Source: a virus
Strand: one strand, 5' to 3'
Virus record (IMG/VR): IMGVR_UViG_3300043424_000108
Location: 1-64,000 of that record
DNA: 64,000 nucleotides
Position 1 is the stretch's first letter. Each line of letters begins with the position of its first letter. Under the pieces are notes generated by a model that saw only the letters and a program-made list of their open reading frames with translations, did no database searches and was not told the DNA's origin. The position numbers were made by a program, and so were the translations under genes. Positions 1 to 36,274 of the stretch are shown one piece after another.

Positions 1-462
1 TGCTTTAGAGCTATTTACCCGTTAATTTTAGCTATGGACTATGAAGCTAAGCCTAAATGGTGCCCCAGATGGTTTCTACGCTTCTTACACCTGTTTGGTT
101 GTGATAACTCTCTAGTAAGAGTAAGAAACAGAAGATTACACAACCTATTTAGAAACTTAACCAAAGGTATTATGTTCTGGGACTATAAGACTAAGTGGAC
201 TAGTTATGACTTACGTATTAGTATTTCAGCACCTAAACACTTACAAGATCTAGCTGATGATATAGAAAGCGGGTTTTACAGTAGGGGTAGACAAGAAGAA
301 CTAGTAGCTCAGATTAAAAGACTAAACCCTAACTCAAACATTATGTGGGGTAGTATTGATCGCTTAGAAAAACAACTAGAAGAACTACAAGCTGAAAAAG
401 AAAAAAGAGATAAGCAATTAGATTCTCTTGTTCAACAAGCTAATGATAAACTTAGAGGATAA
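1..462 (+). CDS. hypothetical phage protein, probably truncated at the window start
   Basis: Frame is open from base 1 through the ATG at 34; coiled-coil C-terminus. Confidence 0.7.
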   Translation, partial: CFRAIYPLILAMDYEAKPKWCPRWFLRFLHLFGCDNSLVRVRNRRLHNLFRNLTKGIMFWDYKTKWTSYDLRISISAPKHLQDLADDIESGFYSRGRQEELVAQIKRLNPNSNIMWGSIDRLEKQLEELQAEKEKRDKQLDSLVQQANDKLRG

Positions 463-466
463 AAAA

Positions 467-793
467 ATGACAAACAATAAAAAACAGACTGGGATAAATG
501 AAGTTGAGTACATTATTAAAGTTAATCAATTTGCAAAAGAAAACAACACGGATAAGCCAAGACAACAGACAGCAGTTGAGTGGTTGCTAAATGCAATAGA
601 AACTAAAAATGGTGAGGAATTTTCTTCTTATTATACAGAATTTATTGAACAAGCCAAAGAAATAGAGAAGGAAAGAACAATTCAATTTTGCATAGATTGG
701 TATTTTAATGGCACTGTAATGATGAAAAAAATTGATGTAAAAACTACCATTGAACAACACTACAACGAAACCTACGAAGGAGGTGAGCAATGA
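467..793 (+). CDS. small early protein, QQTAVEWL...EQAKE family
   Basis: Likely start ATG 467 (MTNNKKQT) after an A-rich leader; ends YEGGEQ with ATGA overlap; paralogous to 2066..2329. Confidence 0.75.
   Translation: MTNNKKQTGINEVEYIIKVNQFAKENNTDKPRQQTAVEWLLNAIETKNGEEFSSYYTEFIEQAKEIEKERTIQFCIDWYFNGTVMMKKIDVKTTIEQHYNETYEGGEQ
769..793 (+). repeat. gene-junction repeat copy (AACCTACGAAGGAGGTGAGCAATGA)
   Basis: 25-nt exact match to 2646..2670; degenerate copies near 1488, 1797, 2052, 2305, 3746, 5226. Confidence 0.9.
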
Positions 794-990
794 TTTGGGA
801 TTTATTATCTGATAAACAGAAAGAAGAAGTAAAAGAGTATGTAAAATCCTTTGGATTAGAAATTGCTCAAATTTATGTTCAAGTAGAAGAAAACACCAAA
901 GAACCTATGGTGCTTGATTCAAAAATGAACTTAGTAGATATCCACGAAGTAATAGAAGGAGTATATTTAAGAGACTTAATTAACAAATAA
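790..990 (+). CDS. hypothetical protein
   Basis: ATGA-coupled ORF preceded by GGAGG. Confidence 0.7.
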   Translation: MIWDLLSDKQKEEVKEYVKSFGLEIAQIYVQVEENTKEPMVLDSKMNLVDIHEVIEGVYLRDLINK

Positions 991-997
991 AAAGCAA

Positions 998-1105
998 ATG
1001 AAAAACAATAAAGACCAGATGACAGTTGGCAAATACCTTTTACTTTTTGTAGGCATTTCATTCATTATTTTTAATACCTTATTACAATTAAACTTAATCC
1101 TATGA
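998..1105 (+). CDS. 35-aa membrane peptide (not in ORF track)
   Basis: MKNNKDQMTVGKYLLLFVGISFIIFNTLLQLNLIL; shares the array N-terminal motif; ATGA overlap with next gene. Confidence 0.6.
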   Translation: MKNNKDQMTVGKYLLLFVGISFIIFNTLLQLNLIL

Positions 1106-1341
1106 AAAACAATAAACAACAAACGGCATTTGACCAGTTATTCACATTAGTAATTAAAAAATATGAAAATGTAGAATGGGTATTTCAATTCAATAATGAT
1201 GAACCGATATTACTTGGACGACCTAAAGATGACACAAAAGAATTGATTTTGACCATTGGTAATAGGTCTGATTCTAATGTTTTATTTAGCGATGGTAAAG
1301 GAAACACATTTAAAATTTTCGCAAGGGAGCAAAAACAATGA
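1102..1341 (+). CDS. hypothetical protein
   Basis: Starts MKNNKQQTA; coupled on both sides. Confidence 0.7.
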   Translation: MKNNKQQTAFDQLFTLVIKKYENVEWVFQFNNDEPILLGRPKDDTKELILTIGNRSDSNVLFSDGKGNTFKIFAREQKQ

Positions 1342-5545: not shown

Positions 5546-5817
5546 CAAGAGAACAAAAACGTGAAAAAGCAGTGGTTGACATCATCAATCAAATGTTTAT
5601 CATTGCAGGTCATGATGTTACATTTGATGACATCAAAGATCGTAAAGACAACTGGTACACAGAGTGGACTATGACTGTTGAACAAAGTGATGAATGGAGA
5701 GCTTGGGGAGTAAATTATCTAATGAAACTTTTTAAAGTAAACAAGAAGTTTGCTGAGACAGAGATGGCATGGATGAATCTAATGTGGGGACTTAAATACT
5801 CAAATCTTAACCCATGA
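5530..5817 (+). CDS. hypothetical protein
   Basis: WYTEWTMT motif resembles WYEKHTWT in 13877..14200. Confidence 0.7.
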   Translation: MAKRLTREQKREKAVVDIINQMFIIAGHDVTFDDIKDRKDNWYTEWTMTVEQSDEWRAWGVNYLMKLFKVNKKFAETEMAWMNLMWGLKYSNLNP

Positions 5818-12005: not shown

Positions 12006-12275
12006 ATGGAAATAGAACATTATGGAGAGAGTCTGGAGTCACATCCAGACTTTCTCTTTATGAAAAAAATGTGGATGGAAGACTTGGAAAAAGTTCATGA
12101 ATCCCTTATCTTTGTAGACCCGATAAAGATTAATTCTCAGGAAATCTTTAAGGGTGTAAACTTTACTTTAATCAAACCAACCAATGAAGAAGACGTTTTA
12201 CGAAGTTCTCTGGGCACTACTGCAGAAAGAGAAGATGATCGACAAGTGGATTTACGAAGAAAAACTTCTACATAA
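12006..12275 (+). CDS. hypothetical protein
   Basis: ORF directly after the peptidase; overlaps next gene. Confidence 0.55.
   Translation: MEIEHYGESLESHPDFLFMKKMWMEDLEKVHESLIFVDPIKINSQEIFKGVNFTLIKPTNEEDVLRSSLGTTAEREDDRQVDLRRKTST
12084..12114 (+). promoter_or_regulatory. Bacteroidota-type promoter upstream of replication genes
   Basis: TTGGAA-N17-TATCTTTG. Confidence 0.6.
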
Positions 12276-19941: not shown

Positions 19942-21912
19942 GTGATATATCTAGTAACAAAACAAGATATCTCCCTACCTGATGTAACTCTCTGCTCCGT
20001 ACAAGATTCCCTAGATTACTTAAATAAGTTAGACTCTATTGGTGTCGATACCGAGACTAGTGGTTTTGATCCATATACTTGCAAGTTTTATACCTTGCAA
20101 TTAGGAGACCAAGACGTACAGTATGTTGTAGACCTATCTACGATAGACATTCAAGAGTATAAGAATTTACTAGAGACTAAGGAACTCATAGGTCATAACT
20201 TTAAGTTTGACTTACGATTCTTGTATCATCAGAGAATTGTACCCACTAGGGTATATGATACGTTTTTAGGAGAGAAAACATCCCGTTTGGGTATAGAAAG
20301 TCATAGATGTTCTTTAGCTGCTTGTGTAGATCGCCATTGCGGAATAACACTTAGCAAAGAAGAACGAGCAAACATTACAGGTAGACTAACCGAAGGGTTT
20401 GTTAAGTATTCTGCCTATGACGTAAAATATCTCCACGAGATTAAGAGTAAGCAAAACTTTAATCAATTTACAGAAGGTACAGATGTGTCCATTCAATTGG
20501 ACAATCGCTTTGTTCTAGTGCTAGCATATATCGAATACTGTGGTATGAAGCTAGACGTAGAACAATGGACCAAGAAGATTGAAAAAGTACAGATACAAGC
20601 TGATGAGGCAGTAGAAGAACTTAATAAGTTTATCCTAGAGAACAGAATGTCTAAATTTATAGACACTCAGTTAGACATGTTCTCTACAGGTAATAAGATT
20701 AACGTGAATTGGAACTCACCCTTACAGGTTGTAGAATTCTTTGAAGCTATAGGTGTAAACACAACCGTAGTCGAGAAAGGAGTGAAGAAACAAACTATAG
20801 AAGCAAACCATCTAATTAAGTTTGTAGACAAGTACCCGATTATTAAAACCTATCTTTCATTCAAAGAAGCACAGAAAGACATAGGAACTTATGGTTACAA
20901 CTGGATAGAACAAATCAATCCAGTAAGCGGAAGAATCCACACACAGTTTAAGCAGTTGATGAACACAGGACGCTTATCTAGTGGTGGTAAATCTGGTAAC
21001 GTAAAGAACTTTAACTTTCAAAACATTCCATCAGACCAAGAGACTCGTAGTTGCTTTGTAGCAGCAGAAGGGAATACTCTAGTAGGTTGTGACTATACAG
21101 GACAAGAACAGATTGTACTAGTCAACAAGTGCTTAGATAAAAACTTACTTGAGTTTTATGATAATGACTTAGGTGATATGCACTCGTTTATAGCGAGTAA
21201 GATGTATCCTGAGTTGGATGGTATGGACTTAGATGAAATCAAAAAGAAACATAAGGATAAGCGACAATCAGCTAAGGTTGCTGGCTTCGCTATTAACTAT
21301 GGTGGCTCAGGTATTGGTATAGCAGACCAACTAGGATTAAATGTAGAGCAAGGTCAAAAGATCTATGACGCATACTTTGCAGCCTTTCCTGGACTTAAAG
21401 CCTACTTTGATGAAACTAAGAAGTTTGGAATAGAGAATGGTTATGTGTTAATCTCTCCCGTAACAGGTAAGAGATCTTACGTAGATTATTACCAAGAGTT
21501 CGCAGAGATCAAAGGCGAATTAACAAAAGACTTCTGGGATAGATACAAATCCCTAAAGAACAGTGACACTCCTACTGCTAGGCAAATGAAGGAGAAGGTC
21601 AGCAGGTTCTTTAGAAAACGAGGTGACATTGAAAGAATGTCATTGAATTATCCTATCCAAGGTGAATCTGCGGAGATTACTAAATTAGCTTGTGTATATT
21701 TTTGGAATAAGTATTTAGTACCTAATAATTTATTGTTTAAAGTATTGATAGTCAATATAATACACGATGAAATATTGGTAGAAACTCCTCTAAGAATTGC
21801 AGAAGAGACAGCAAAACAATTAGAAAAATCAATGGTAGATGCAGGTGCTAAGTTTTGCAAAAGAGTAAAGCTAAAAGCAGATCCTTGTATTGCGCCTTAC
21901 TGGAAGAAGTAA
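19942..21912 (+). CDS. polA: family A DNA polymerase with 3'-5' exonuclease
   Basis: VDTET, HNFKFD, YSAYD, TGRLSS, DYTGQE, AKVAGFAINYG, IHDEI. Confidence 0.96.
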   Translation: MIYLVTKQDISLPDVTLCSVQDSLDYLNKLDSIGVDTETSGFDPYTCKFYTLQLGDQDVQYVVDLSTIDIQEYKNLLETKELIGHNFKFDLRFLYHQRIVPTRVYDTFLGEKTSRLGIESHRCSLAACVDRHCGITLSKEERANITGRLTEGFVKYSAYDVKYLHEIKSKQNFNQFTEGTDVSIQLDNRFVLVLAYIEYCGMKLDVEQWTKKIEKVQIQADEAVEELNKFILENRMSKFIDTQLDMFSTGNKINVNWNSPLQVVEFFEAIGVNTTVVEKGVKKQTIEANHLIKFVDKYPIIKTYLSFKEAQKDIGTYGYNWIEQINPVSGRIHTQFKQLMNTGRLSSGGKSGNVKNFNFQNIPSDQETRSCFVAAEGNTLVGCDYTGQEQIVLVNKCLDKNLLEFYDNDLGDMHSFIASKMYPELDGMDLDEIKKKHKDKRQSAKVAGFAINYGGSGIGIADQLGLNVEQGQKIYDAYFAAFPGLKAYFDETKKFGIENGYVLISPVTGKRSYVDYYQEFAEIKGELTKDFWDRYKSLKNSDTPTARQMKEKVSRFFRKRGDIERMSLNYPIQGESAEITKLACVYFWNKYLVPNNLLFKVLIVNIIHDEILVETPLRIAEETAKQLEKSMVDAGAKFCKRVKLKADPCIAPYWKK

Positions 21913-22172: not shown

Positions 22173-22599
22173 AGTTTACATTCCTGCATCTTTATCTCTT
22201 AATATAGATGGCACTGTACATCTTAAAGGAGATAGAGAACTAATGCAGTCTTATTTTAGAGAACTTATGAAACAGGACCCCAAAGTAGATGTAGAGATTT
22301 GTATTACACGAATCGACTCAAAGAAAACAAACCCTCAATTGGCTTATTTTTACAGTACCCTAGTACCTATCATCCGAGGAGGATTTGAGTCGCTTACGGG
22401 GGAAGTATACACCAAAGAAGACGTAGTTGCTTTCCTTAAGGACAAGTATTTCTACGAGGAGATTATGTTTCAGGGACAATTTATCAAAACTCCTCTTTCA
22501 CTTTCTAAGGGAAAGAAGGAAGAAGTCCATAAGTTTATCCAAGATGTTATTACCTTTGCAAGAGAAATCCTGGGAGTGGAAGTACCAGAACTAAGTTAG
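22162..22599 (+). CDS. NinB/Orf-like recombination protein
   Basis: KTNPQLAYFY...FLKDKY...SLS...FIQDV...LGVEVP. Confidence 0.65.
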   Translation: MINRVYIPASLSLNIDGTVHLKGDRELMQSYFRELMKQDPKVDVEICITRIDSKKTNPQLAYFYSTLVPIIRGGFESLTGEVYTKEDVVAFLKDKYFYEEIMFQGQFIKTPLSLSKGKKEEVHKFIQDVITFAREILGVEVPELS

Positions 22600-22604
22600 A
22601 AATT

Positions 22605-22877
22605 ATGTTATACATTATAGAACCAAGAACAGAAACAAACAAAGTGGAAGCCGTGGGCTTTCCTGGAATTAGCCACTACTATGGTGAGAATTCAGTTACT
22701 TACAAAGACGAAAAAGGAGACAAAGGAGAAATTACAGTCTCTATAGGGTCTATCGTTAATTGTAATGGAACTCCTGGAGTAGTCACAGAAGTTGTTACTA
22801 TGAAGTTTGGAAGAGTTATCCTAACAGTTAAGTTAGATCATACTCCTAAAACTACTACAGGAGCTTTAATGCGTTGA
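22605..22877 (+). CDS. hypothetical protein
   Basis: Operon ORF. Confidence 0.65.
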   Translation: MLYIIEPRTETNKVEAVGFPGISHYYGENSVTYKDEKGDKGEITVSIGSIVNCNGTPGVVTEVVTMKFGRVILTVKLDHTPKTTTGALMR

Positions 22878-22879
22878 TT

Positions 22880-23860
22880 ATGGCAAATGATTTCCCCGCT
22901 ATGGAAGATTACAACGAGGGCACACAAGCACTTCGTTTTAACAAAGGCAAAGCACATTGGTCTCTAGTAGATTTTAAGTCTCTAGAGCCAATGGTGGAAG
23001 TCTTAGAGTTTGGAGCAAAGAAATATTCCTTGACAAATAAATTGGATATACTATCTTTGTTACAGTTATGCCTAAAATCGGAATTTGTAACAACTGTGAA
23101 GATAGTAGACCAATTATCTCACGAGGACTTTGTAGTACCTGTTACAGAAAAGCTACGGAAAATTATGGTACCTGCACAAGGTGTTCGGAACATAGACCTG
23201 TTAATAAAAAATCTATGTGTAGAGCCTGTGCTGAGTACGTCAGAGTGCACAGCTCTAATGAGTATACTACCAAAGTCAGAGAATACCAAGCAAACTACAG
23301 AAAAAGAGAAGACTTCCGAGAGCAAGAACGAGTTAGATCGGCTAACAGAAGAAGTAATCCAGAGTATTTACTTAGGAAAAAAAGATCAGACTTCTTACGA
23401 AGACTTTCCAACTATGGAATTACTGAGGAGTTTTATCTCTCTGAGTGCAAAAAAGGCTGTCAAATTTGCGGAAATAAAGAAAGATTACACATTGACCATG
23501 ATCATACAACAAGAAAATACAGAGGTATTTTGTGTGGTAAATGCAACAACGCCCTTGGCTTGTTTGACGACAATGTTAAAATTATTGCAAAAGCAATCTC
23601 TTATTTGCAAAAAAATAACAGTCAGTAACGGTGTATATACCGAATCTGGAAAAAACAATTGGAAAAAAGGAATGCCAGTAAGCGAAGTAGTTGAAAGCAT
23701 GCTTAGACATACATTCAGTTTGTTGTCAGGTGAGTCTCACGATAAGGAGTCTTTGATTCACCATATAGGACACATACAATGTAACGCTATGTTTATTGCT
23801 TACATCCTCAGAGAGAAGCCTGAATTTAATGACTTAACAGATGAAGGTAAAGTTCAGTAA
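22880..23860 (+). CDS. dATP/dGTP diphosphohydrolase (DUF5664) interrupted by a 207-codon in-frame insertion
   Basis: N-part RFNKGK..WSLVD...VLEFGAKKY; C-part GKNNWKKG...SMLRH...DKESLIHHIGHIQCNAMF; removing 23027..23647 gives a ~119-aa canonical domain. Confidence 0.88.
   Translation: MANDFPAMEDYNEGTQALRFNKGKAHWSLVDFKSLEPMVEVLEFGAKKYSLTNKLDILSLLQLCLKSEFVTTVKIVDQLSHEDFVVPVTEKLRKIMVPAQGVRNIDLLIKNLCVEPVLSTSECTALMSILPKSENTKQTTEKEKTSESKNELDRLTEEVIQSIYLGKKDQTSYEDFPTMELLRSFISLSAKKAVKFAEIKKDYTLTMIIQQENTEVFCVVNATTPLACLTTMLKLLQKQSLICKKITVSNGVYTESGKNNWKKGMPVSEVVESMLRHTFSLLSGESHDKESLIHHIGHIQCNAMFIAYILREKPEFNDLTDEGKVQ
23030..23059 (+). promoter_or_regulatory. internal promoter of the inserted element
   Basis: TTGACA-N16-TATCTTTG, 8 nt upstream of ATG 23068. 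Confidence 0.75.
23068..23628 (+). CDS. endonuclease VII-family (Endonuclease_7) homing endonuclease nested in an alternative frame
   Basis: CQICG...LHIDHDH...RGILCGKCNNALGLFDDN...AISYL; two N-terminal CxxC-CxxC repeats. Confidence 0.92.
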   Translation: MPKIGICNNCEDSRPIISRGLCSTCYRKATENYGTCTRCSEHRPVNKKSMCRACAEYVRVHSSNEYTTKVREYQANYRKREDFREQERVRSANRRSNPEYLLRKKRSDFLRRLSNYGITEEFYLSECKKGCQICGNKERLHIDHDHTTRKYRGILCGKCNNALGLFDDNVKIIAKAISYLQKNNSQ

Positions 23861-24014
23861 CTTCTTTAGAGGAAAACAAGGACAACGAGATTATCCTTAT
23901 TGGTTTTTTTACACAATCCCTACACTAACCTTTAGCAGAACACACTCTAAACAAAAGTTCAGTGTTCACTTAGGGTTTTTGTGGTTTAATTTAACTTTAA
24001 CAATAAACAAATGA
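23841..24014 (+). CDS. 57-aa hypothetical protein (not in ORF track)
   Basis: MKVKFSNFF...IPTLTF...LGFLWFNLTLTINK; ATGA overlap with next gene. Confidence 0.65.
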   Translation: MKVKFSNFFRGKQGQRDYPYWFFYTIPTLTFSRTHSKQKFSVHLGFLWFNLTLTINK

Positions 24015-24979
24015 TTTTAGATCAAGGATACTTAGACAGTACAGCACAGAGTCAGAGCAGACTTAAAAAGCTATTGCAACACCCAAACCTTTATTATAAT
24101 TATGACCCTAGCTCCGATACAGATGAGCCAGCAGAAGTAACTCTAATAGGTGATGGAGTTGATTTAATCTTAACTCAAGGAGAAGAAGTATTCAGATCAG
24201 AGTTCCACATCAGTAGTGTAGAAAGACCTACAGGACAAATGGGAGACTTTGTATGGCATCTTTATACTAACCGAAATGATAGTATGGCTGAGACTATTGC
24301 GTATGAAGCAGCAAAGTTTAAGCGAGATACTCTCCCTAAGGTAAGAGAAAGATTCGCAATAGAAGGTAAGACCTATTACGAAGATTTGATTGCAGCAGAA
24401 GGAAAGAAAGTAATCTCTTTTGCCCAAGAAGCTCTGATCATTAATATCGCAGAAGGACTCAAGTCACATGCCTTCACTTCTAAGTTTGTAAAAGGTAACT
24501 CACAGTACAAAGTATTTACCCAACAAGCTTTAAGCTTTGAGTATTTAGGAGTACAGTGTAAAGGTTTACTAGATCTAGTAGTTGTTGATGTAGTAAACAA
24601 CATTCTTTATCCTATCGACTTGAAGACTACTACTACTTCCTTAAATTTTTGGACAGATACTCTTATGAAGTATCGCTATGACTTTCAAGGAGCATTCTAC
24701 ACAGAAGCTTTGAAGCAAACAGACCTCAGTATCTATGGAGAAAATCTAACAGTTAACAACTTTAGATTCATTGTAGAAAGCCAGAAGTTCCCAGGTAGTC
24801 CTTTAATCTATGAGCTGTCAGATGAAGCCATGGCTATAGGTAAGATGGGTGGAACTTTCCAAGGTAAGACCTACGAGGGTTTTCACCAAGCTATTGAGAG
24901 ACTTATGTGGCACTCAGAAAACGATTTGTGGGCATACACTAAAGAAGACTACGAGAATGACGGCATCAGAGTTATCTAA
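24011..24979 (+). CDS. PD-(D/E)XK exonuclease (RecE/ExoVIII-like)
   Basis: SQSRLK, CKGLLD, IDLKTT, YRYDFQGAFY, FRFIV. Confidence 0.88.
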   Translation: MILDQGYLDSTAQSQSRLKKLLQHPNLYYNYDPSSDTDEPAEVTLIGDGVDLILTQGEEVFRSEFHISSVERPTGQMGDFVWHLYTNRNDSMAETIAYEAAKFKRDTLPKVRERFAIEGKTYYEDLIAAEGKKVISFAQEALIINIAEGLKSHAFTSKFVKGNSQYKVFTQQALSFEYLGVQCKGLLDLVVVDVVNNILYPIDLKTTTTSLNFWTDTLMKYRYDFQGAFYTEALKQTDLSIYGENLTVNNFRFIVESQKFPGSPLIYELSDEAMAIGKMGGTFQGKTYEGFHQAIERLMWHSENDLWAYTKEDYENDGIRVI

Positions 24980-25425: not shown

Positions 25426-25866
25426 ATGCATAAAATACCAATCGTTTACAACGCAGTAGTAGGAGGTAAAGCTAGCCTTTACTTAGATTTAACTAAAAGG
25501 ATAGCTTTAGAATCTTACTGTAAGAGACTACAGGTAGGATGTCTTATAGTAAAGAATGGAAACATTATTTCCTTTGGCTATAACGGAACTCCTTCTGGCT
25601 TTCCCAATGTATGTGAGTGTGACGATACCACTTTTGACTATGTACTACACGCAGAGTCTAATGCAATCACTAAGGCATGCAAGAGTCCTATCAGTACAGA
25701 AGACGCAACTATGTACTGTACTCATGCATGCTGTGTGCATTGCGCTAAGTTGGTAATTCAGAGTGGAATTACTACATTTGTATACCTAGAAGACTACAGA
25801 GATAGATCAGGAATAGAACTCTTAATCACTGCAGGTCTAGATGTCGTTAAAGCAAAAACAATTTAA
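25426..25866 (+). CDS. dCMP deaminase
   Basis: QVGCLIV, GYNGTPSG, HAESNA, CCVHCAK. Confidence 0.95.
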   Translation: MHKIPIVYNAVVGGKASLYLDLTKRIALESYCKRLQVGCLIVKNGNIISFGYNGTPSGFPNVCECDDTTFDYVLHAESNAITKACKSPISTEDATMYCTHACCVHCAKLVIQSGITTFVYLEDYRDRSGIELLITAGLDVVKAKTI

Positions 25867-27104: not shown

Positions 27105-28427
27105 TTATTTAAAGCGAATATAAAACGAATAAATCGAATCCGTATCTTTTTCTACTAAATCAAAGGAAACTCCTGGGTATCCAGGGCCAAAGTTGTTCAT
27201 AATCCACTTAGAAGAGCCATACATAGACAATACATTACGGTATCTAAACTTATATGCTTGTTGCATACTCTCAGTATGTAGGTCTCCTTTTACTATAGAG
27301 ATATTTTTATTCTCTCCTAAGTTATGGTGGTCGATGTACTTATTAAGGAAGTTTTCTGCTTTCTCGTTTAAGAAAAGGGGAAGACCATGCTTAAGATCTT
27401 CCGAATCTTTTCCATGAGTAAAGATAAACGTATGTTTGCCATAGTCAAAATGTTCTAAGAACTTCTCCATTATCGTTACCTTGATGAATGGATAAGCTGT
27501 GTTTAAGTATAAGTTTAACGCTTGATTAGTAATGTAACCAAAAGAACCTGCATGGTTATCGTTAGTTTGCATTACTGCGTGGATGTTATTTGCTAAGTTT
27601 TTCTCTACTAAAGTGTCGAAGAATCTCTTATGAGCATAAAGGTAAGTCATAAAAGCTTCTTTACTGTCCATATTCTGAGGTAACTGGTGACCACCTCTAG
27701 TAGTGTAGCCATTCCAACCATCTAAAGAATCTCCTAAGTCACAAATAAACAAGTCTTGTAGTCTTCCATAAGTCCTAACTTGCTTCTCTATCTCTTCTAG
27801 AGTTCTATTCATCCTTTCTTCGAAGACATTCTCATTGTATTCGTTACCATAAAGAGCAGTAGGATGTGTAAGTGCACCTACATGTTTGTCACTCATGTAT
27901 ACAAATAAGCCTCTATTAGTGCTTACAAGGGCTTTCTTAGGTGTTGGATATACATTGATGCCAGACTCTAAGAAAACTTCTCTTAGAATGCTTTCTATGT
28001 CGTCATTAAAAGTATCCTCAGGCTTTATATGAGCAAATAAGGCTGACACTAGCCAGCCTGAACTCTTTTCTTTACTCCAATATTGAACTAACTTCCACTT
28101 AGTAGTGTCTATCTTGTGTATCTTAACTATCTCTTCAGGAGATCTAGGTTGTTCGGATACTAGTTTAGATACTTCTAACGTACCTTTTTCTAGGTTTTCA
28201 TTATAGGTACTTACAGAATCGGAATTAGATTGAGAATTATCTGGATAAGCATCCTCTCTTATAAGTTTAGCTACGGCTGTTCTTTTTAAGTCACGAACTT
28301 TTTTGCCTCTTAACTCGTTACTTAGTTCTGGGCAGAAGTTAAAACGGATAGCAACTTCAACAGCTGTCTCAGTTGTGTTTGGATTATCCATATAGTGACG
28401 GATAATCTGTTTAGAGATTGGCATCAT
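27105..28427 (-). CDS. calcineurin-like metallophosphoesterase with N-terminal extension
   Basis: SDKHVG, LGDSLDG, NDNH, THG, GDLH. Confidence 0.88.
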   Translation of the reverse strand: MMPISKQIIRHYMDNPNTTETAVEVAIRFNFCPELSNELRGKKVRDLKRTAVAKLIREDAYPDNSQSNSDSVSTYNENLEKGTLEVSKLVSEQPRSPEEIVKIHKIDTTKWKLVQYWSKEKSSGWLVSALFAHIKPEDTFNDDIESILREVFLESGINVYPTPKKALVSTNRGLFVYMSDKHVGALTHPTALYGNEYNENVFEERMNRTLEEIEKQVRTYGRLQDLFICDLGDSLDGWNGYTTRGGHQLPQNMDSKEAFMTYLYAHKRFFDTLVEKNLANNIHAVMQTNDNHAGSFGYITNQALNLYLNTAYPFIKVTIMEKFLEHFDYGKHTFIFTHGKDSEDLKHGLPLFLNEKAENFLNKYIDHHNLGENKNISIVKGDLHTESMQQAYKFRYRNVLSMYGSSKWIMNNFGPGYPGVSFDLVEKDTDSIYSFYIRFK

Positions 28428-28438
28428 AGGCTTGGTGG

Positions 28439-28798
28439 TTAAAATATTAACCCTATGGTTAACAAAGCTATAGCAATTAATCCGCCTTTCAAAACATTCT
28501 TCAATGTTTTTATAGTTTCTGCTTGAGATTTAACCTTAGTATCCAAGCGAACTATCTCTACCTTAGCTGTATCTAGGGCCTTTTGGTAGTTGGGAACTAT
28601 AGAATCTTTATAATAATGTAGTTGGAGACTGTCTGCTTTGACAATCTTCTTTAGACTAACTACTCTTTCACGTGCTTGAATTCCTTTTATGAACTCATTA
28701 TTCAACTCCTTTAGCGGTAAGCTGTCTAGAGATTGTGAGTAGATACTTTGTGCCGTCAATGTCAGGCATAGTGTCAATAGCAATCTGAATTGTGTCAT
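28439..28798 (-). CDS. spanin-like lysis protein
   Basis: N-terminal signal-like segment, coiled coil, C-terminal TM; downstream of holin. Confidence 0.55.
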   Translation of the reverse strand: MTQFRLLLTLCLTLTAQSIYSQSLDSLPLKELNNEFIKGIQARERVVSLKKIVKADSLQLHYYKDSIVPNYQKALDTAKVEIVRLDTKVKSQAETIKTLKNVLKGGLIAIALLTIGLIF

Positions 28799-29802: not shown

Positions 29803-29832
29803 CAAAAATACTTTTATTTAAAATAAAGTCAA
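29803..29832 (-). promoter_or_regulatory. Bacteroidota-type promoter for the lysis operon
   Basis: Minus strand TTGACT-N16-TATTTTTG. Confidence 0.7.
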
Positions 29833-29833
29833 G

Positions 29834-32800
29834 TTATTCTTCTTCAGGTTCAGGAGTAACATCTAATCCCCTCCTATCTCCTAATAGATTCATAAATGGA
29901 TAAGCAATAGGACTTGATTCATCTATTTTACCTGCCTTGATTCCTTCTATTCTTTTCTTATAATTATCTCTTAAGGTCTTAAGTTTGTTGTTTACACTTT
30001 CTGGTACTCTTTCTCCTCTAGAAACATACTTAGCAGTTTCTTCTTGAATCTCTTTAAGTTGTTTCTTAAACAACTTTTTTTCTTGAGCTAAGCGAGTTCT
30101 AGTAGGCATAATCTCTAATCCTTCGTAATCTTTCTTATACCTAGTCCTTAGTTCTTTAGTATAAGTCTTAGGAGCGTAGTCATTGAATGCTCTGTTTTGA
30201 AATTCTACTGATTTAGGTCCAATAAAAGCTCCTTTAAGCCCTAAGAATTCCATACCCAATACAGCCAATCCCATCTCACCTGCTTGCATAGGGTGTGTTC
30301 TATCCCAGTCTACTTTATTAGAGTTAGGGCGATACTTGTAATACGGATCTGTAGAGTAGAGATCACCGTCTGTAACAAACTTTCTCCAAACACTGAAGGG
30401 TCCCATAGCAGCCCAACCTATCTTCTCAAAGATAGATACACCGTTTGCTTGCTCGGCTACATAAGTAAACATCATTTCATTTATTCCCCACCCAGTAAAT
30501 ACTCCTTCAGCTTCGTTAGCTGTTCTTTTTGCACCTAAACACACATAGTCTTTCCAATCTGATTCAGCATCCTCTTCGCAATTCAAAGCCAATGACATCT
30601 GTACAATTAAATTTGCTAATACTGTATAGGTAGCTAACTGAACGGCAAACTGCTTTAAGCCTGCTTTTTGTGTGTCAGAACTATACTTCCAGGTATTATA
30701 CATTCTACCTTTGTCAAAGTAAACTGTATCCATTAAGAAGTTTAAAGCAGCCCTATGAGAACCAATAGTTTTAATACCTGCTCCATAGTGAATAGTCTCA
30801 GAACCCCAAGTAGACTTAAGATCTGGAATAACCCATTTCTTCAAGAACATAATAGATCTAAACCAAGCATGTTTAGCCATAGTAGGCTGTGCCTCTAACG
30901 AGTAGATACCTTGTGCTCTTTCATTAGCTAATTGTATTTCTTTTCTAACTCTCTGTACAAACTCAAAGCTTACATCTACACTAGGCTTAGGCTGAATAAC
31001 TCCATCTCTAAGTTCGAAAGCATCTTTCAACCTAATTGTTTCTGTGCTACCTTTTACAGGAACTCTATACTTATTTAAGAAAGCATAAGTAGTTACTGCA
31101 GCAATATCAAATTCAGTAAAGTCCCTGAGAGTAGAGACAGCTTTCCAAGCTTTACCGTACTTAGCAAGACCTTTGTTGTTAATCTCACTTGCCTGGTTAG
31201 CTAACGCCTGAGTACCAGTAAAATAATCTACTAGAGATACACGGTAACTTTTAGCTCCAAACTGATTATAAGTTAAGTAAAACTCTTTGCTAATACCCGA
31301 GGTATCTCCGTGAGCCCTTACCAAGTCTTTAGCAGTAATGTGGTAAAATCCTAATTGAGAAAGAATTTTAAGGTGACCACTAATCCAGTTTTGTGGGAGA
31401 CTCATTAAGTTAAATCCTAATGTCTTGAATCCTGCAACATTACTTACTCCTGAGAATAGGCTATTACCTACTCTTAAAGCAACAGAGTTGTTTTTATCTT
31501 CTAATACTTTGCCATAAAGTTCTCTATCAATCAAATCTGCAATTACTTTAGAAGCACCTGATTCTTCTTTACCTGCTGACATTACTTCTTCCATAGTAAG
31601 AACTGTTGACTGGTACTTACGCATTACTTTAAATCTCTCAGAAGAGGTAGCGTAAGAAGCCATAGCAGTCATAATATCGTAAGACTGTTCTTCAATGGGA
31701 AGAGTACGTGCATAACGATTAAATAGTCTACGGGATTCCCTTGTTACGGGATCTCCAAAGGCATCTGTTTGATAAGCGTCTCCGTAGATATCGTCCTCGT
31801 CTGAAAAAGAATCTCTGTCTCCCTTAAAGTAACTTAAGATATTCTTAAAGAATTGCTTAACTATATTGGCTTTAAGTTTTATTAGATCTACAAACTCACC
31901 CTTTGTTTTACGCATTCCAGGAATCAAATCTCCTAGTTTGTCTTTTTGATAAAGGTTCTCTTGGCTACGATAATGAAGGACTCTCATACGTTCTAACAGT
32001 TGTTTCTGTGTAGAAGTAAGATTGTCATAGTTACTATTATAGTACTCGCCTCCTGTAACCTCTTTAAATGTAATTTCTTTTGGTTTGTATTTAGGATTCT
32101 TAAACTCTGGCCTAATTACAGATTTATACCAAAGACTTGAGGGTGCATCCTTTTCTATGTAGTTAGGATTGTTAGGTCTAGTTACCCTCCACATAAATAA
32201 AGGTTCAACTACCTCCTGAACTACTCTAGTCTCAGGATTAAATCTAAACTTAGTTATGTGGTTGTTTTGATACCATACAGAATTCTTGTATCTGGCCTCT
32301 ACTATTTTTTCTATAGACTGTGTATCTAAGTCTGGATTCTCTGTAGTTACTTGAGTACGAATAGAGTCTTTTTGGTTTCTTACAGCACTCTCATAATACT
32401 CAGAATTAACGTTACTCTGTAGATCTTGTAGCTTTTCGATAAGAGCACCTAGTTTACTTTTAGTATCTTTATCTAGAGGGCTATCTTGCTTAAGCAAAGA
32501 TTTGATTTCCTCAATCTGTAACTCTAGTTCTTTTGCCTTAACTACTTGTTTATCAGTAACTTGTACAGGATCGTAAACACCATTTCTATCCTTAGTTCCT
32601 AACAAAAGATTAAATAGACCAGAGTAAAGATCTTGCATAGAACCCCTATTACTTAGTAGACGTTGGATATCATCTAAGATAATTTGTCTAGTGTCGTAGA
32701 ACTCTTGTGTATAAGTAGTACGTGTGTGTACTGAAGCCCACTTATTGTAAGCATCTTGTGTGATTAAGCCTTTTGCTAAGTCTGCTTTCTTGCTAGCGAG

Positions 32801-35800
32801 CATCTTCTCGAATACAGCCCTACTATCATCAGTGAGAACAAAGTTCATGACTTCAGCATTTCTCTTTGTTTCTTTCCACTTTTGAATAGCAATAGCATCT
32901 TCGTATGCTTTACCTGTTTTCAGTTCTCCAGCCTCATCGTAGATTCTTTCTAGCTCGTAGATTTCTTTCTCTTTCTCTTTAAGTCTCTCGATTGTATGTT
33001 CGTCTATCTCTCCAGTACCAAACTCTTCTCTGATAGCACCAATTTCTTGATAGATTCTGTTTCTTTTTTCTTTTACGTCATCTGGTAACAGCTTTTGAAT
33101 AGCATAATACTCATCTGTAAAAGGACGCTCTGTATACTCTTCGTAAAACTTCTTAAGATCCTCTTCTGCTTTATTTCTTATCTCCTCTGTCTCACCATAC
33201 TCTACAAGATAATTAAGTTCAGTAGCCCTGTTTCTAAGTTCGATTGTCTTAATCTTTGTATTAAGGGATATAACTTTCTTGTCTTTTACAAGTTTGCCAT
33301 CTATTACTTCATACAGTACAGTCTCTCGAATAAAAGGCTTATAGAAGTTTTTAGTATCCATAGCAGAACCAAAGAAACTTCCTTCTGATGCCGCAATGTC
33401 ATCCATAAGATCTTGCCAATCTCTTGCAATAGGCTTTAAGTTCTCTTGAAACTCGTTATTAATACCTCTAATATAGTTAGCAATAATCTGTACGCTAGGA
33501 GTCTTTGTAGACATTGCTGACTCCCAAGCAAGATACCAAGGAGAGTTAGGATCAGCTAAGAACTTTTTAATATTCTCGGGAGTAGGAATACTCTCTGCCT
33601 TTTCTTTTTCTAACTCCGCAATTCTTTTTGCAATAGCAGGAGTTTGTGTACGAGACTTAAGTTTAGCAATATCAGAATCAAACTGAGCTGCAATATCTAC
33701 TGCTTGTTGAGATAGACTATCTGCTAATTCATTAAATACAGGAGCCTGTATATTAGTTGCATGATCTTCTTTAATAGTGTTGATAGCAGTTTTAATCCAA
33801 GAAAGATTCTTTAAGAAAGCGTCTTTCTGAACTTCTGCCCTATACATTTTCTTAAGGACACTAGTGTCAAATAAAGATTCAATCTTTTTAACATGCTTCT
33901 CGATAGCTAAAGCTTGCTTATAGGTTCTATGAAGATCCCCTAACTTCTTACCTGAAGGTATATTAGGATCATTCAAAATGTTATCTAAGTGACGAATCAG
34001 TCCCTGTAGATAAATAGAATTGTATTCAAGATAATCAGCCAACTCTAGAACAGATGCAGCTACATCTTCTTTTGTTAGTATGTTCTTTACCTGCTTAATA
34101 GCATCTAGAGATCTTTGTAGGGACTCATTTCCTAAGCCAAGAAATCTATTGGTATCTAAGATCTTTTTAAACTCAGAGTCACTAATAGCTGAAGCAATTT
34201 TTTGAATCTTCTCTGCATAGGTTTGGAATTCAAACTGTCCACCAGGAGTAGTTACTACATACTGAGTCAAAGCATCTACTTGATCTTGAGGAACTATACG
34301 TTGGAACATATAGTCTTCGATTGCAGAGTTTGTAGGAATCACCTCAAACAAGTTAGAGGGATTAACAAGAGACTCCACTAAATTAGACATATTACTAATA
34401 GGAGTAACTCCTACTTTAAATGATCTAAGCAAAGACTTAAACCAATCAAAGACTTTATCAAACAAACTTCTATTAGCTTTAGTAACCGCTTGTCTACCTA
34501 ACTCAGTTACAATAACCTCTTCCCAGAAAGATTCGCTTCCTACATAATCAGGATAAGCGTCTTCTACAAAAGAGTAAGCAGATGATGTGGGGGATTCTTC
34601 GTGTAATCTTTTTACCTCAGCCTTAAGCTGTTCAAATAACTCAGGATTAGATTCTCTAATACCTCTAACTACAAAGTGTCCAAATTCATGCCAAGGGGTA
34701 TCTTCCTGAATAAGTTCAGGATTAAGTTCAATCTCTCCTGTAGATAAGTTAACTCTAGCGGCCTCTGCAATTTCGTTGTTCCACTTCCAAGTTACTCCAG
34801 GGAATCTAGAAGCAAGTTTATCTAACACCTGTCCATAAGCTTTTATCTTAGGATCTTTAAGTGCTTGTTTTAAACTAAAGTTCTTTTGGAACATTAATCC
34901 ATTCAAAGGAAGTACTTCTCCATCAATCAAAAGTTCATTTGCTGATTGGAGTTTTTCCATAATAGCTGCTTTTTCTTTTCCTAGATTCTCTTGGATCTCA
35001 AACAACTCCATTTCAGTTCTCATAGACTCTTCTTCTAGAGTCTCAACTGCTTGTAGGAAAGGAATAGTATAACTACCATTCAAGTCAAATTCAATTAAAG
35101 TCTGTCCATCAGACAACTCTCTTACGTATGCAGGAGGATTAGAGTATGCTAAAGGAAACATTGCATTGATGTTTTCTTTTAATCTAACTGCGTAGTTATA
35201 AAGTGCACCAGGAGATTTAACTCTCTTTGTCTCAGAAAGATAAATTTTGTTTCCTTCTACTCGAACAGAGTCAAGACCTTGAATAGCTGGAAGTATTTCT
35301 TGGAAGTGTTTAGAAGCTACGTAACGCTTCTTCTCTTCCATTGACATGTTCCAGTACTCTGGACTAGTTTGAATGCCTCTAACAAAGTCGTATTGTCTTT
35401 CTAAACGAATAAATCTATCAGATACAAACTTTGCATCCTTCCTACTAAACATAGTAGTAGGCATTACATTACTAGCTACAAACTTTTTAAATCCTGCTAT
35501 GTCTTGTTTGTTTCCTAGTATGTGAACTTGTTCATCTTGATTTACAATGTAAATAGTTTTTTCACCAGCATCATTATTTGTTAAGACAGTATCAAACTCT
35601 TGAGTATTAGTTAAATAGTTATTAAGTTCTTTTAGTTTACTTTCTTTTATATGCTCTGTTAATGGTTCCCAACCAGAATTGCGTTCAGAAAATTCAGTGG
35701 CTTCTGCTAAAGTAGGAAATACTTCTATTTCTACCACTTCGCCTATAAATTCTAACGCAAACTTTGAATTTTTAATTGCATCAATCTCTGCTTGAATCTC

Positions 35801-36274
35801 CGCTTTACTTTGTGGTCTATTACCAAAAAAAGCATCTCTTTGGAATTGTACATTTTTTGCATTAATTAATAAAGATACTATACTACCTTCTTTTTTAGCG
35901 TACCCTTTAGCCTCCCTTTTATCAGTACTTACATAGAAAACGTTACCTCCAAAAATGTTTTTTGAAAAATCTACTTCATCAAACTTTTTCCCTTTAGTAC
36001 CATGATAAACAATATCTTTTACTTTACTATCTGGAAAGATAGTATCTAAGTATGCGGAGTATTGTTCTTGTGTGCCTACAGAAGCTAACTCAGGATTGGT
36101 CACAAACAACTCCTCTACTCCCTCCTTAATGGTTGACTTAGGCAAGTTGTAATATTTAGCAGGTACTTCTCCCTGATACTTATCCCAGAGATAGTAAGCA
36201 TACTCTGGGACTATAGATTGAAGTTTCTCAAATTGAGCCTTTATAGTTGGGTCTGATAGGTTAGGACAAAACAT
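29834..36274 (-). CDS. giant ejected (cargo) polyvalent protein with ART-like and zincin domains
   Basis: 2146 aa adjacent to vRNAP; VYHGT...FYVS...AKGYA; DTPWHEFGH...EEVI. Confidence 0.8.
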   Translation of the reverse strand: MFCPNLSDPTIKAQFEKLQSIVPEYAYYLWDKYQGEVPAKYYNLPKSTIKEGVEELFVTNPELASVGTQEQYSAYLDTIFPDSKVKDIVYHGTKGKKFDEVDFSKNIFGGNVFYVSTDKREAKGYAKKEGSIVSLLINAKNVQFQRDAFFGNRPQSKAEIQAEIDAIKNSKFALEFIGEVVEIEVFPTLAEATEFSERNSGWEPLTEHIKESKLKELNNYLTNTQEFDTVLTNNDAGEKTIYIVNQDEQVHILGNKQDIAGFKKFVASNVMPTTMFSRKDAKFVSDRFIRLERQYDFVRGIQTSPEYWNMSMEEKKRYVASKHFQEILPAIQGLDSVRVEGNKIYLSETKRVKSPGALYNYAVRLKENINAMFPLAYSNPPAYVRELSDGQTLIEFDLNGSYTIPFLQAVETLEEESMRTEMELFEIQENLGKEKAAIMEKLQSANELLIDGEVLPLNGLMFQKNFSLKQALKDPKIKAYGQVLDKLASRFPGVTWKWNNEIAEAARVNLSTGEIELNPELIQEDTPWHEFGHFVVRGIRESNPELFEQLKAEVKRLHEESPTSSAYSFVEDAYPDYVGSESFWEEVIVTELGRQAVTKANRSLFDKVFDWFKSLLRSFKVGVTPISNMSNLVESLVNPSNLFEVIPTNSAIEDYMFQRIVPQDQVDALTQYVVTTPGGQFEFQTYAEKIQKIASAISDSEFKKILDTNRFLGLGNESLQRSLDAIKQVKNILTKEDVAASVLELADYLEYNSIYLQGLIRHLDNILNDPNIPSGKKLGDLHRTYKQALAIEKHVKKIESLFDTSVLKKMYRAEVQKDAFLKNLSWIKTAINTIKEDHATNIQAPVFNELADSLSQQAVDIAAQFDSDIAKLKSRTQTPAIAKRIAELEKEKAESIPTPENIKKFLADPNSPWYLAWESAMSTKTPSVQIIANYIRGINNEFQENLKPIARDWQDLMDDIAASEGSFFGSAMDTKNFYKPFIRETVLYEVIDGKLVKDKKVISLNTKIKTIELRNRATELNYLVEYGETEEIRNKAEEDLKKFYEEYTERPFTDEYYAIQKLLPDDVKEKRNRIYQEIGAIREEFGTGEIDEHTIERLKEKEKEIYELERIYDEAGELKTGKAYEDAIAIQKWKETKRNAEVMNFVLTDDSRAVFEKMLASKKADLAKGLITQDAYNKWASVHTRTTYTQEFYDTRQIILDDIQRLLSNRGSMQDLYSGLFNLLLGTKDRNGVYDPVQVTDKQVVKAKELELQIEEIKSLLKQDSPLDKDTKSKLGALIEKLQDLQSNVNSEYYESAVRNQKDSIRTQVTTENPDLDTQSIEKIVEARYKNSVWYQNNHITKFRFNPETRVVQEVVEPLFMWRVTRPNNPNYIEKDAPSSLWYKSVIRPEFKNPKYKPKEITFKEVTGGEYYNSNYDNLTSTQKQLLERMRVLHYRSQENLYQKDKLGDLIPGMRKTKGEFVDLIKLKANIVKQFFKNILSYFKGDRDSFSDEDDIYGDAYQTDAFGDPVTRESRRLFNRYARTLPIEEQSYDIMTAMASYATSSERFKVMRKYQSTVLTMEEVMSAGKEESGASKVIADLIDRELYGKVLEDKNNSVALRVGNSLFSGVSNVAGFKTLGFNLMSLPQNWISGHLKILSQLGFYHITAKDLVRAHGDTSGISKEFYLTYNQFGAKSYRVSLVDYFTGTQALANQASEINNKGLAKYGKAWKAVSTLRDFTEFDIAAVTTYAFLNKYRVPVKGSTETIRLKDAFELRDGVIQPKPSVDVSFEFVQRVRKEIQLANERAQGIYSLEAQPTMAKHAWFRSIMFLKKWVIPDLKSTWGSETIHYGAGIKTIGSHRAALNFLMDTVYFDKGRMYNTWKYSSDTQKAGLKQFAVQLATYTVLANLIVQMSLALNCEEDAESDWKDYVCLGAKRTANEAEGVFTGWGINEMMFTYVAEQANGVSIFEKIGWAAMGPFSVWRKFVTDGDLYSTDPYYKYRPNSNKVDWDRTHPMQAGEMGLAVLGMEFLGLKGAFIGPKSVEFQNRAFNDYAPKTYTKELRTRYKKDYEGLEIMPTRTRLAQEKKLFKKQLKEIQEETAKYVSRGERVPESVNNKLKTLRDNYKKRIEGIKAGKIDESSPIAYPFMNLLGDRRGLDVTPEPEEE

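Follow-up and report, generated by a model that had tools for sequence, protein, structure and literature searches.

We found a mobile insert of 621 nucleotides (nt) in a phage gene of the DUF5664 family that carries a complete endonuclease VII (Endo VII) gene in a second reading frame and yet leaves the frame of its host gene free of stop codons from end to end. The locus lies in the first 64,000 nt (hereafter, the window) of an IMG/VR virus record of 81,369 nt that is ~69% complete (IMGVR_UViG_3300043424_000108). Host-frame stops are avoided in this and in the eight other insert lineages compared as DNA, according to the genetic code that each phage uses, and neither an intron nor an intein is detectable. 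The likely explanation is a 'hidden' homing endonuclease element of the ShiLan type, in which an Endo VII/HNH gene occupies a loop of the DUF5664 protein and the host frame is read through. The parts of the locus, all on the plus strand of the window, are as follows.

22880..23026 (+), 5' part of the DUF5664 host gene, ending ...FGAKKY; PF18909 profile positions 3-40, near-identical in insert-free alleles
23027..23647 (+), mobile insert of 621 nt, 207 host-frame codons with 0 host-frame stops; missing from near-identical alleles
23030..23059 (+), promoter-like TTGACA-N16-TATCTTTG within the insert's 5' flank, its end separated from the nuclease ATG by 8 nt; also read as host-frame codons (..LT..)
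23068..23628 (+), Endo VII-type HNH homing endonuclease gene of 186 amino acids (aa), PF02945; its frame begins at the third position of host codons
23648..23860 (+), 3' part of the DUF5664 host gene, from GKNNWKKG... to the stop TAA; PF18909 profile positions 37-98, modelled with high confidence

An Endo VII gene nested within a DUF5664 gene

The host open reading frame (ORF) runs uninterrupted from 22874 to 23860 and encodes 328 aa, although ATG at 22880 is likely to be the true start rather than TTG at 22874 because close homologues begin with MAND. It matched the Pfam family PF18909 (dGTP_diPhyd_N, DUF5664; E = 5.8e-21) in two stretches, one on either side of the insert, covering profile positions 3-40 (22925-23038) and 37-98 (23648-23833), the second being the best match (host residues 259-320). 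Members of DUF5664 are deoxynucleoside triphosphate (dNTP) pyrophosphohydrolases, and the Arthrobacter phage Wayne protein is reported to act on dATP, dGTP and dUTP (PMC12884076); by family assignment, the window's host gene appears to encode an enzyme of this activity. Residues G47, K50, Y51, N262, W263, R278 and H279 show little or no variation among insert-bearing proteins, and the host gene seems to have been kept despite the insert.

Alignment to insert-free alleles (L002-L005 and others) confirmed the boundaries that a sequence-only reading of this DNA had proposed, with 621 nt at 23027-23647 splitting the motif between FGAKKY and GKNNW. Insert-free alleles read FGAKKY-AP-NNWKKG, and the window reads FGAKKY, 207 aa, then GK-NNWKKG. 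In DNA, the insert-free ...AAGAAGTAT GCACCA AACAATTGG... corresponds in the window to the KKY codons, 621 nt, GGAAAA and AACAATTGG. Judging from other loci, the insertion point is a permissive and naturally length-variable loop: KY and NW are 3 aa apart in most of the 69 listed loci, 9 aa in L078, ~30 aa in L047 and L051 and 145 aa in L065, whose long loop has no second ORF.

The same reading had recognized a complete Endo VII ORF in another frame, and profile matches bore this out, to PF02945 (Endonuclease_7, E = 8.4e-16, profile positions 5-82 of 82) and to the PHROG family phrog_2914 (endonuclease VII, 3.5e-24). The protein has the Zn-binding Cys pairs and the H-D-H...N core of the Endo VII/HNH (beta-beta-alpha-Me) fold, with C131, C134, H141, D143, H144, H146, C156, C159 and N160 invariant in the nuclease alignment (A3). 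The gene begins with ATG 41 nt into the insert and ends 19 nt before its 3' boundary, leaving flanks of 13 and 6 host codons. Each host codon is made up of nuclease codon positions 2 and 3 plus the next position 1, an offset shared by L001, L033 and L064. A nuclease-frame TAA at 23038-23040, 28 nt upstream of the ATG, excludes a simple fusion of the nuclease to the first exon. The G+C content of the insert (36.2%) is close to that of the window (36.3%). No close DNA relatives were found in named phage records (blastn 'distant', query 22600-24100), and a tblastn search with the nuclease returned 1,060 records, all below 60% identity and mostly annotated as endonuclease VII.

The insert is real and mobile

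In a scan of viral contigs for the host-exon pattern, the insert-free loci L002-L005 were 100% identical to the window in their best tblastn segment. Insert-bearing sequence was present in metagenome runs of 12 studies, and both junctions were bridged by contigs from three independent studies (X5, 699 nt; X6, 721 nt; X10, 1,326 nt). Run X5 holds both alleles, with the insert contig at a depth of 24.5 and the insert-free contig at 48.2, and in the latter 23026 is connected to 23653 through the bases found in the insert-free allele. The presence of two alleles with near-identical exons, together with their co-occurrence in one independent metagenome, indicates that the element is mobile and no artefact of assembly; the bridging contigs and the two alleles in X5 likewise rule out a chimera and reveal a polymorphic population. 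The histories of exons and insert also conflict, which implies that the insert moves between alleles: P0002 and P0003 are 65% identical in their exons and 96% identical in the insert, and P0003 and P0012 are 88% identical in their exons and 32% identical in the insert.

Two positions adjacent to the insert (23023 A>G and 23665 A>G) vary among insert-bearing contigs of other samples and also differ from the window in insert-free alleles, a pattern that could reflect co-conversion tracts or variation of the target site. In three further loci, L111 and L113 (each 1074-1776) and L100 (1147-2061), an uninterrupted DUF5664 gene is followed immediately downstream by a free-standing Endo VII gene; these nucleases have 11-13 stops in the +1 frame. 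An Endo VII gene beside an intact DUF5664 gene is a plausible starting state for invasion.

The host frame is open in all nine insert lineages compared

Searching protein databases with the 328-aa ORF recovered insert-free DUF5664 proteins as well as ~20 clusters of 270-396 aa (covering >84% of the query, identity down to 32%) that are DUF5664 proteins read through a homologous insert. The passenger peptide alone, searched against 1.84 billion representatives, matched 27 clusters (50% identity) at E <= 1e-3, and these clusters together with the window protein (28 members) all match PF18909. Relatives known from protein (P0003-P0024 and P0046-P0067) report on the open host frame only and do not cover the state of the nuclease frame. 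Because called proteins favour open frames, we added scans seeded with the nuclease alignment (A3), which make no selection for an open host frame and comprised 80 viral-contig loci and 80 metagenome-contig loci.

The nuclease lay between DUF5664 exons in 8 of the 80 viral loci, and all eight had 0 host-frame stops. Three of the 80 metagenome loci were nested in DUF5664, two of them with 0 stops by genetic code table 11 and the third being L223, described below. The third frame of the table-11 loci nested in DUF5664 contained 18-34 stops. Among non-nested loci, 68/72 on viral contigs had 1-17 stops in the host-equivalent frame and 74/77 on metagenome contigs had at least one, giving 142/149 loci outside DUF5664 with at least one stop (range 1-24; not de-duplicated). 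After de-duplication, the nested loci and the window form 9 lineages (8 table-11 lineages and L223) at 44-83% nt identity, and the host frame is open in 9/9, each under its own genetic code. Resampling each locus with the codon usage of its neighbouring genes gave 2.7-8.0 expected stops, with a probability of zero stops, P(0), of <2e-4 to 0.044. Neither common host-frame stops in homologous inserts nor an assembly chimera was found. The search that the sequence-only reading had suggested, for in-frame inserts holding an Endo VII ORF in an alternative frame, thus turned up further examples in DUF5664 loci and also in helicase loci.

Five of the seven exceptions among the 149 loci are nested in helicase or helicase-methylase ORFs. 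These nuclease relatives (L107, L108, L125 and L127 on viral contigs and L182 on a metagenome contig; 29-44% identity) sit in SNF2/DEAD-like ORFs of 650-740 aa in the same relative frame with 0 host-frame stops, and the L182 ORF runs on into an N6_N4_Mtase domain (Helicase_C + N6_N4_Mtase). We take them as instances of the same layout and do not count them as separate statistical support because P(0) is 0.06-0.09 at their G+C content, a range that leaves out L108, for which there was no neighbour codon table. The remaining two exceptions (L167 and L240, 0 stops) lack a longer surrounding host ORF (141 and 187 aa; G+C 0.47 and 0.60), and we attribute them to chance.

The 145-aa in-frame insert at KY...NW in L065 (2983-3759) has no other ORF of at least 50 aa in the same-strand frames. 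We rejected it as a decayed copy, since a profile of 10 nested nucleases searched in six frames gave a best match of only E = 1.6, and with the same profile and all filters off no nuclease remnant better than E = 0.48 was found in the L047, L051 and L073 regions.

Stop codons are avoided through synonymous choice

Within the nuclease ORF of the window, the host frame has 0 stops, compared with 26 in the third frame and 5, 9 and 15 in the reverse frames. The corresponding frame of 39 other ORFs in the window (17,850 codons) had a stop rate of 8.07% and no open run longer than 83 codons, versus 207 here. Redrawing synonymous codons from genome codon usage yielded 6.14 expected stops (s.d. 1.85), with zero reached in 1e-4 of 20,000 draws, so the shuffling check proposed earlier upholds the claim that the frame is stop-free by selection. 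Permuting the ORF's own synonymous codons gave a mean of 2.30 host-frame stops and zero in 2.9% of draws, a weaker result that is explained by codon choice itself already carrying the avoidance.

The register of the two frames explains how this is achieved. A host stop arises only from a nuclease codon NTA before A or G, or NTG before A, and the element can therefore become 'transparent' through synonymous choices alone, as only codons with T at position 2 are involved. All 13 of the nuclease's Leu, Ile and Val codons before a purine are NTT or NTC, and 3/3 TTA codons precede C, exactly as an earlier manual count had it. GTA makes up 562 of 928 Val codons in the genome (61%) versus 0/6 in the nuclease, and ATA makes up 214 of 976 Ile codons (22%) versus 0/11. 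In the other register, the abundant codons of a basic protein that begin with AA, AG or GA would create conflicts (26 stops), which may explain why ShiLan, the intein cases discussed below and the window element share the same relative frame.

A phage that reads TGA as glycine provides a natural control

Locus L223 (364-1176 of metagenome contig Ga0075464_10045612) is a DUF5664 gene with a nested Endo VII gene and has 18 apparent stops in its two frames, all of them TGA. Under genetic code table 25, both the host gene (364..1176, 270 aa) and the nuclease (510..959, 149 aa) are whole. Three TGA codons lie in the exons, where they coincide with the conserved Gly of YNEGK, MDGEE and ESGxxH; of the nine in the nuclease, three align with invariant Gly and most of the remainder with columns in which Gly is the majority residue. 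TGA thus occupies conserved Gly positions, and we conclude that this phage reads TGA as Gly; other ORFs of L223 likewise need TGA as a sense codon.

Across the 168-codon insert of L223, the host frame contains 6 TGA and 0 TAA or TAG codons. Within the nuclease ORF, 4.8 TAA or TAG codons were expected and 0 seen (P(0) = 0.003), and 2.9 TGA codons were expected and 5 seen. In contrast, the eight table-11 lineages have 0 TGA codons in the host frame. The codons that are avoided are therefore those that terminate translation in the organism concerned, and we regard L223 as the strongest argument that ribosomes would traverse the insert in the host frame. The earlier proposal that the parasite is tolerated as dual-coding sequence agrees with this control, with the open frame in all nine lineages and with the stops in free-standing relatives.

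The nuclease frame is constrained and no intron or intein is detectable

Comparison of seven nested nucleases indicated which of the two frames is under sequence constraint. In 21/21 pairs, differences peaked at nuclease codon position 3 (0.24-0.67), with position 2 lowest in 15/21 and positions 1 and 2 close together in the most diverged pairs. Host-frame identity was below nuclease-frame identity in every pair (0.47 versus 0.65, down to 0.17 versus 0.32). Purifying selection on sequence thus acts on the nuclease frame only, and the passenger seems free to vary short of stops.

We rejected a group I or II intron because no intron family was matched at E up to 10 (Rfam cmscan, 22500-24200) and the mere 60 nt of insert outside the ORF leave no room for a ribozyme core; the same search returned seven chance-level matches to snoRNA and lncRNA families (E = 0.35-6.9). 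An intein was rejected for want of a HINT family and because the junction residues are unfit. No Hint or intein Pfam family was matched by the window (E <= 1), by 25 members of set A1 (E <= 0.01) or by 28 members of set A4, and PF18909 was the sole host-frame match throughout. The insert opens with S, T, G or F and closes with E, I, F, L or K, and a conserved terminal Asn or His-Asn is lacking. The claim that the element is neither intron nor intein therefore stood.

Structure-based searches were also negative. A PDB profile search returned just two chance-level TRIM25 rows (E = 0.57 and 0.87). In an AlphaFold2 (AF2) model from a 25-row alignment, the exon helices have a pLDDT (predicted local distance difference test) score of ~90, residues 68-204 fall below 50 and residues 205-257 form a modestly confident hairpin and helix. 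Foldseek against the PDB found no match at E <= 1e-3, which is a weak fold test for an intein because the passenger is modelled at pLDDT below 50.

Genomic setting and a candidate promoter

The host gene belongs to a tightly packed same-strand block of replication and nucleotide-metabolism genes, which includes:

Toprim primase-like ORF, same-strand block of the host gene
19942-21912, DNA polymerase A (PolA), same strand as the host gene
24011-24979, PDDEXK protein, same strand as the host gene
25426-25866, dCMP deaminase, same strand as the host gene

The motif TTGACA-N16-TATCTTTG at the 5' end of the insert is the best sigma-70-like match in 22500-24100 (10/12). The exact pattern occurs once versus 0.06 expected; with up to two mismatches there are 7 sites versus 1.34 expected, and 0/100 shuffles reach 7. 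TTGACA and TATCTT are kept in L081 and L083 but not in more distant lineages. Promoter-like sites in general were not in excess across the whole region (6 found versus 4.5 expected). From this consensus match, which lends modest support, the site could yield a near-leaderless nuclease mRNA. Six further sites of the TATCTTTG type lie in the window at 5576-5605, 12085-12114, 27419-27448 (-), 28463-28492 (-), 29803-29832 (-) and 58676-58705, at least two of which (12085 and 29803) are intergenic and just upstream of ORFs; they may form a phage promoter family. Elsewhere, the minus strand of the window contains very large ORFs at 29834-36274, 36297-49085 and 55711-60807 (2,146, 4,262 and 1,698 aa).

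Read-through and its alternatives

Stop avoidance across lineages and genetic codes points to selection against termination and hence to ribosomes that read through the insert. Our preferred account begins with an Endo VII/HNH gene that would have inserted into the length-variable KY...NW loop of a phage DUF5664 gene and would be translated from its own ATG, possibly via the promoter inside the insert. Given the nuclease family and the polymorphism, we propose that the nuclease cuts the insert-free allele near the junction of KKY and AP (between ...AAGAAGTAT and GCACCAAAC...), with repair copying the element in. Selection on the phage, and hence on persistence of the element, would then purge host-frame stops: phages with a closed host frame would lose the enzyme, and element lineages that keep the frame open would persist. 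Ribosomes on the host gene would run through the insert into the 3' part, and the product would be a DUF5664 enzyme with a ~207-aa, poorly conserved and largely disordered passenger loop, presumably made at full length, active and with the passenger retained. Between the two fates considered in the sequence-only reading, an enzyme that carries the 207-aa passenger now appears the most likely, and no support was found for removal of the passenger.

An open frame would be needed equally if the passenger were removed after read-through, either by a cryptic self-excision without a HINT domain or by proteases that clip the loop and leave the fragments associated. Proteases would have access to the passenger, which is predicted to be mostly disordered; in most homologues the insert begins with Ser or Thr; and, according to a preprint (10.1101/2025.01.02.630785), true inteins can contain relatives of this type of nuclease in a different frame. 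Such removal nevertheless seems unlikely. No intein or Hint family was matched by any of the 25 and 28 proteins searched, the nuclease ORF leaves just 13 and 6 host codons of the insert uncovered, and the C terminus of the insert has no conserved Asn or His-Asn. Some homologues have Gly or Phe at the start of the insert, and insert-free proteins also have Ser, Thr or Ala after KY. Conservation of the host-frame peptide does not exceed that imposed by the nuclease frame, and the peptide has no Foldseek match. Excision by a novel non-HINT activity at the protein level, with translatability as the one conserved property of the peptide, is in our judgement a long shot; if true, it would be a third self-removing carrier for homing endonucleases, beside introns and inteins.

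The frame might also be kept open to avoid polarity or decay affecting the downstream replication genes, or for expression of the nuclease, with the split enzyme dead. The position of the gene in a tightly packed block with PolA, the PDDEXK protein and dCMP deaminase fits this account, and stop avoidance alone cannot separate polarity from selection on enzyme function. Either account is nonetheless quite doubtful, as catalytic-core residues of both exons are invariant or almost so across insert-bearing lineages at 25-60% identity, although repeated re-invasion of fresh alleles could mimic such conservation, and no second DUF5664 copy was found in the 81-kb record, which is 69% complete. Removal of the insert from RNA by an unrecognized self-splicing intron, or its skipping by ribosomal bypassing, strikes us as very improbable. 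Phage homing endonucleases often live in group I introns, and Rfam covers described intron families only, but splicing or bypassing would make an open host frame needless, whereas the frame has been kept open in nine lineages in keeping with the genetic code in use. The lack of any Rfam intron match and the short flanks (41 + 19 nt) also count against splicing, and no take-off stop codon for bypassing is present. Chance or an assembly chimera has a negligible probability: with very many windows scanned, a 1e-4 event could occur once, but the same state recurs in nine diverged lineages and in 27 protein clusters with a read-through peptide, and contigs of three independent studies bridge both junctions.

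Several points weigh against read-through with a retained passenger. Permutation of the nuclease's own codons is far less significant than resampling from genome usage (P = 0.029 for the window and up to 0.30 for L087), and the G+C-richer loci expect few stops and are individually weak (P(0) = 0.044 for L086 and 0.06-0.09 for the helicase loci). Protein-database matches are biased towards open frames, and the nuclease-seeded scans require a recognizable nuclease and so miss decayed inserts with broken host frames. The low-confidence AF2 passenger makes the absence of a HINT fold a weak structural test. The insert-bearing allele is known from DNA and predicted protein, and an enzyme with 207 extra loop residues is putative. 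Finally, the metagenome runs had been assembled as contigs, from which transcript ends and expression levels are not readable, and the sole RNA-library contig that could be placed on the locus (X19, 326 nt, depth 2.3) joins 23026 to 23653 as the insert-free allele; matching that DNA allele, it comes from an insert-free phage and is uninformative on splicing of the insert-bearing allele.

Relation to known systems

The sequence-only reading had implied a new strategy, a claim that does not hold, since a 2025 paper reported the same layout for 'hidden' HNH endonucleases that lie out of frame in DNA methylase genes of mycobacteriophages, namely the ShiLan domain and the insert of Pacc40 gp60 (Arsenault, Gosselin, Gogarten, Genes 2025, PMC11855218). 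As set out in its main sections, that report proposed out-of-frame carriage with read-through from a few actinobacteriophage methylases, with no experiment. The present locus is accordingly a well-supported new example of the ShiLan-type layout and not a new principle. In both systems, close relatives differ in whether they carry the insert, no stop interrupts the host frame and 'the third frame' holds a complete HNH-type ORF that begins 18 bp (ShiLan) or 41 nt (window) into the insert and stops a few bases short of its end. Neither has a detectable intein or intron, and predictions give a loop-like or disordered host-frame peptide in both. Free-standing homologues occur beside the target gene (Sashimi and Tiff81 there; L100, L111 and L113 here), and the helicase-methylase architecture of Pacc40 gp60, judged from the paper's description, resembles that of L182.

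The differences lie in the host gene, a DUF5664 dNTP pyrophosphohydrolase and not a methylase; in the phages, which are AT-rich and from freshwater and not actinobacteriophages; and in the nuclease, which matches Endonuclease_7 and starts with ATG rather than GTG; the likeness drawn here is one of layout. The abstract and main sections of PMC11855218 contain no resampling statistics or genetic-code control, and the terms 'DUF5664', 'MazG', 'pyrophosph', 'endonuclease VII' and 'genetic code' are all missing from its main text. Relative to those parts of the paper, what is new is the host family, the setting in environmental phages other than actinophages, and the controls by resampling and by genetic code. 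Its survey of 'several other phages and prokaryotes' might include DUF5664 as a host family; a literature search of articles, with the main text of PMC11855218 among them, did not find DUF5664 in print as a host gene of such inserts.

Inteins with out-of-frame Endo VII-like nucleases have also been described (10.1101/2025.01.02.630785; 10.64898/2026.09.14.751524). As presented in those reports, they resemble the window element in nuclease type, in relative frame, in a carrier frame that must stay open and in a proposed origin by invasion of a free-standing homing endonuclease. Real splicing domains flank the nuclease there, whereas none is detectable in the 13 + 6 flanking codons here.

Two further arrangements are familiar in phages. 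Free-standing homing endonuclease genes split a host gene in two, or ride the bypass element of T4 gene 60; like the window element, they are intron-less, intein-less nucleases inside a coding region for DNA metabolism, but there the host frame is broken and its two parts are translated separately, or ribosomes bypass 50 nt, and here it is one continuous frame. HNH endonucleases encoded in group I introns likewise represent a mobile gene inside a host gene with intron-free alleles present. The window element differs in having neither a detectable ribozyme core nor room for one and in an open host frame under selection, which would be needless for an intron.

Implications

The usual view is that a homing endonuclease survives within a gene only by way of a self-splicing intron or an intein. 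This locus extends the ShiLan layout to a different enzyme family and to unrelated freshwater phages, in which the layout has persisted through deep divergence, as reflected by nine DNA lineages and 27 protein clusters at 50% identity. It adds statistical evidence of stop avoidance, together with a control in which TGA encodes Gly and only the truly terminating codons are avoided. That ribosomes read through the parasite is the best-supported interpretation. Gene callers label such loci as one long 'hypothetical protein' and miss the nuclease. As a small, readily expressed enzyme with a published pyrophosphatase/malachite green assay, DUF5664 is well suited to testing read-through. More broadly, read-through 'shadow' peptides could be a source of new protein segments, and the 145-aa insert of L065 could be a fossil of one.

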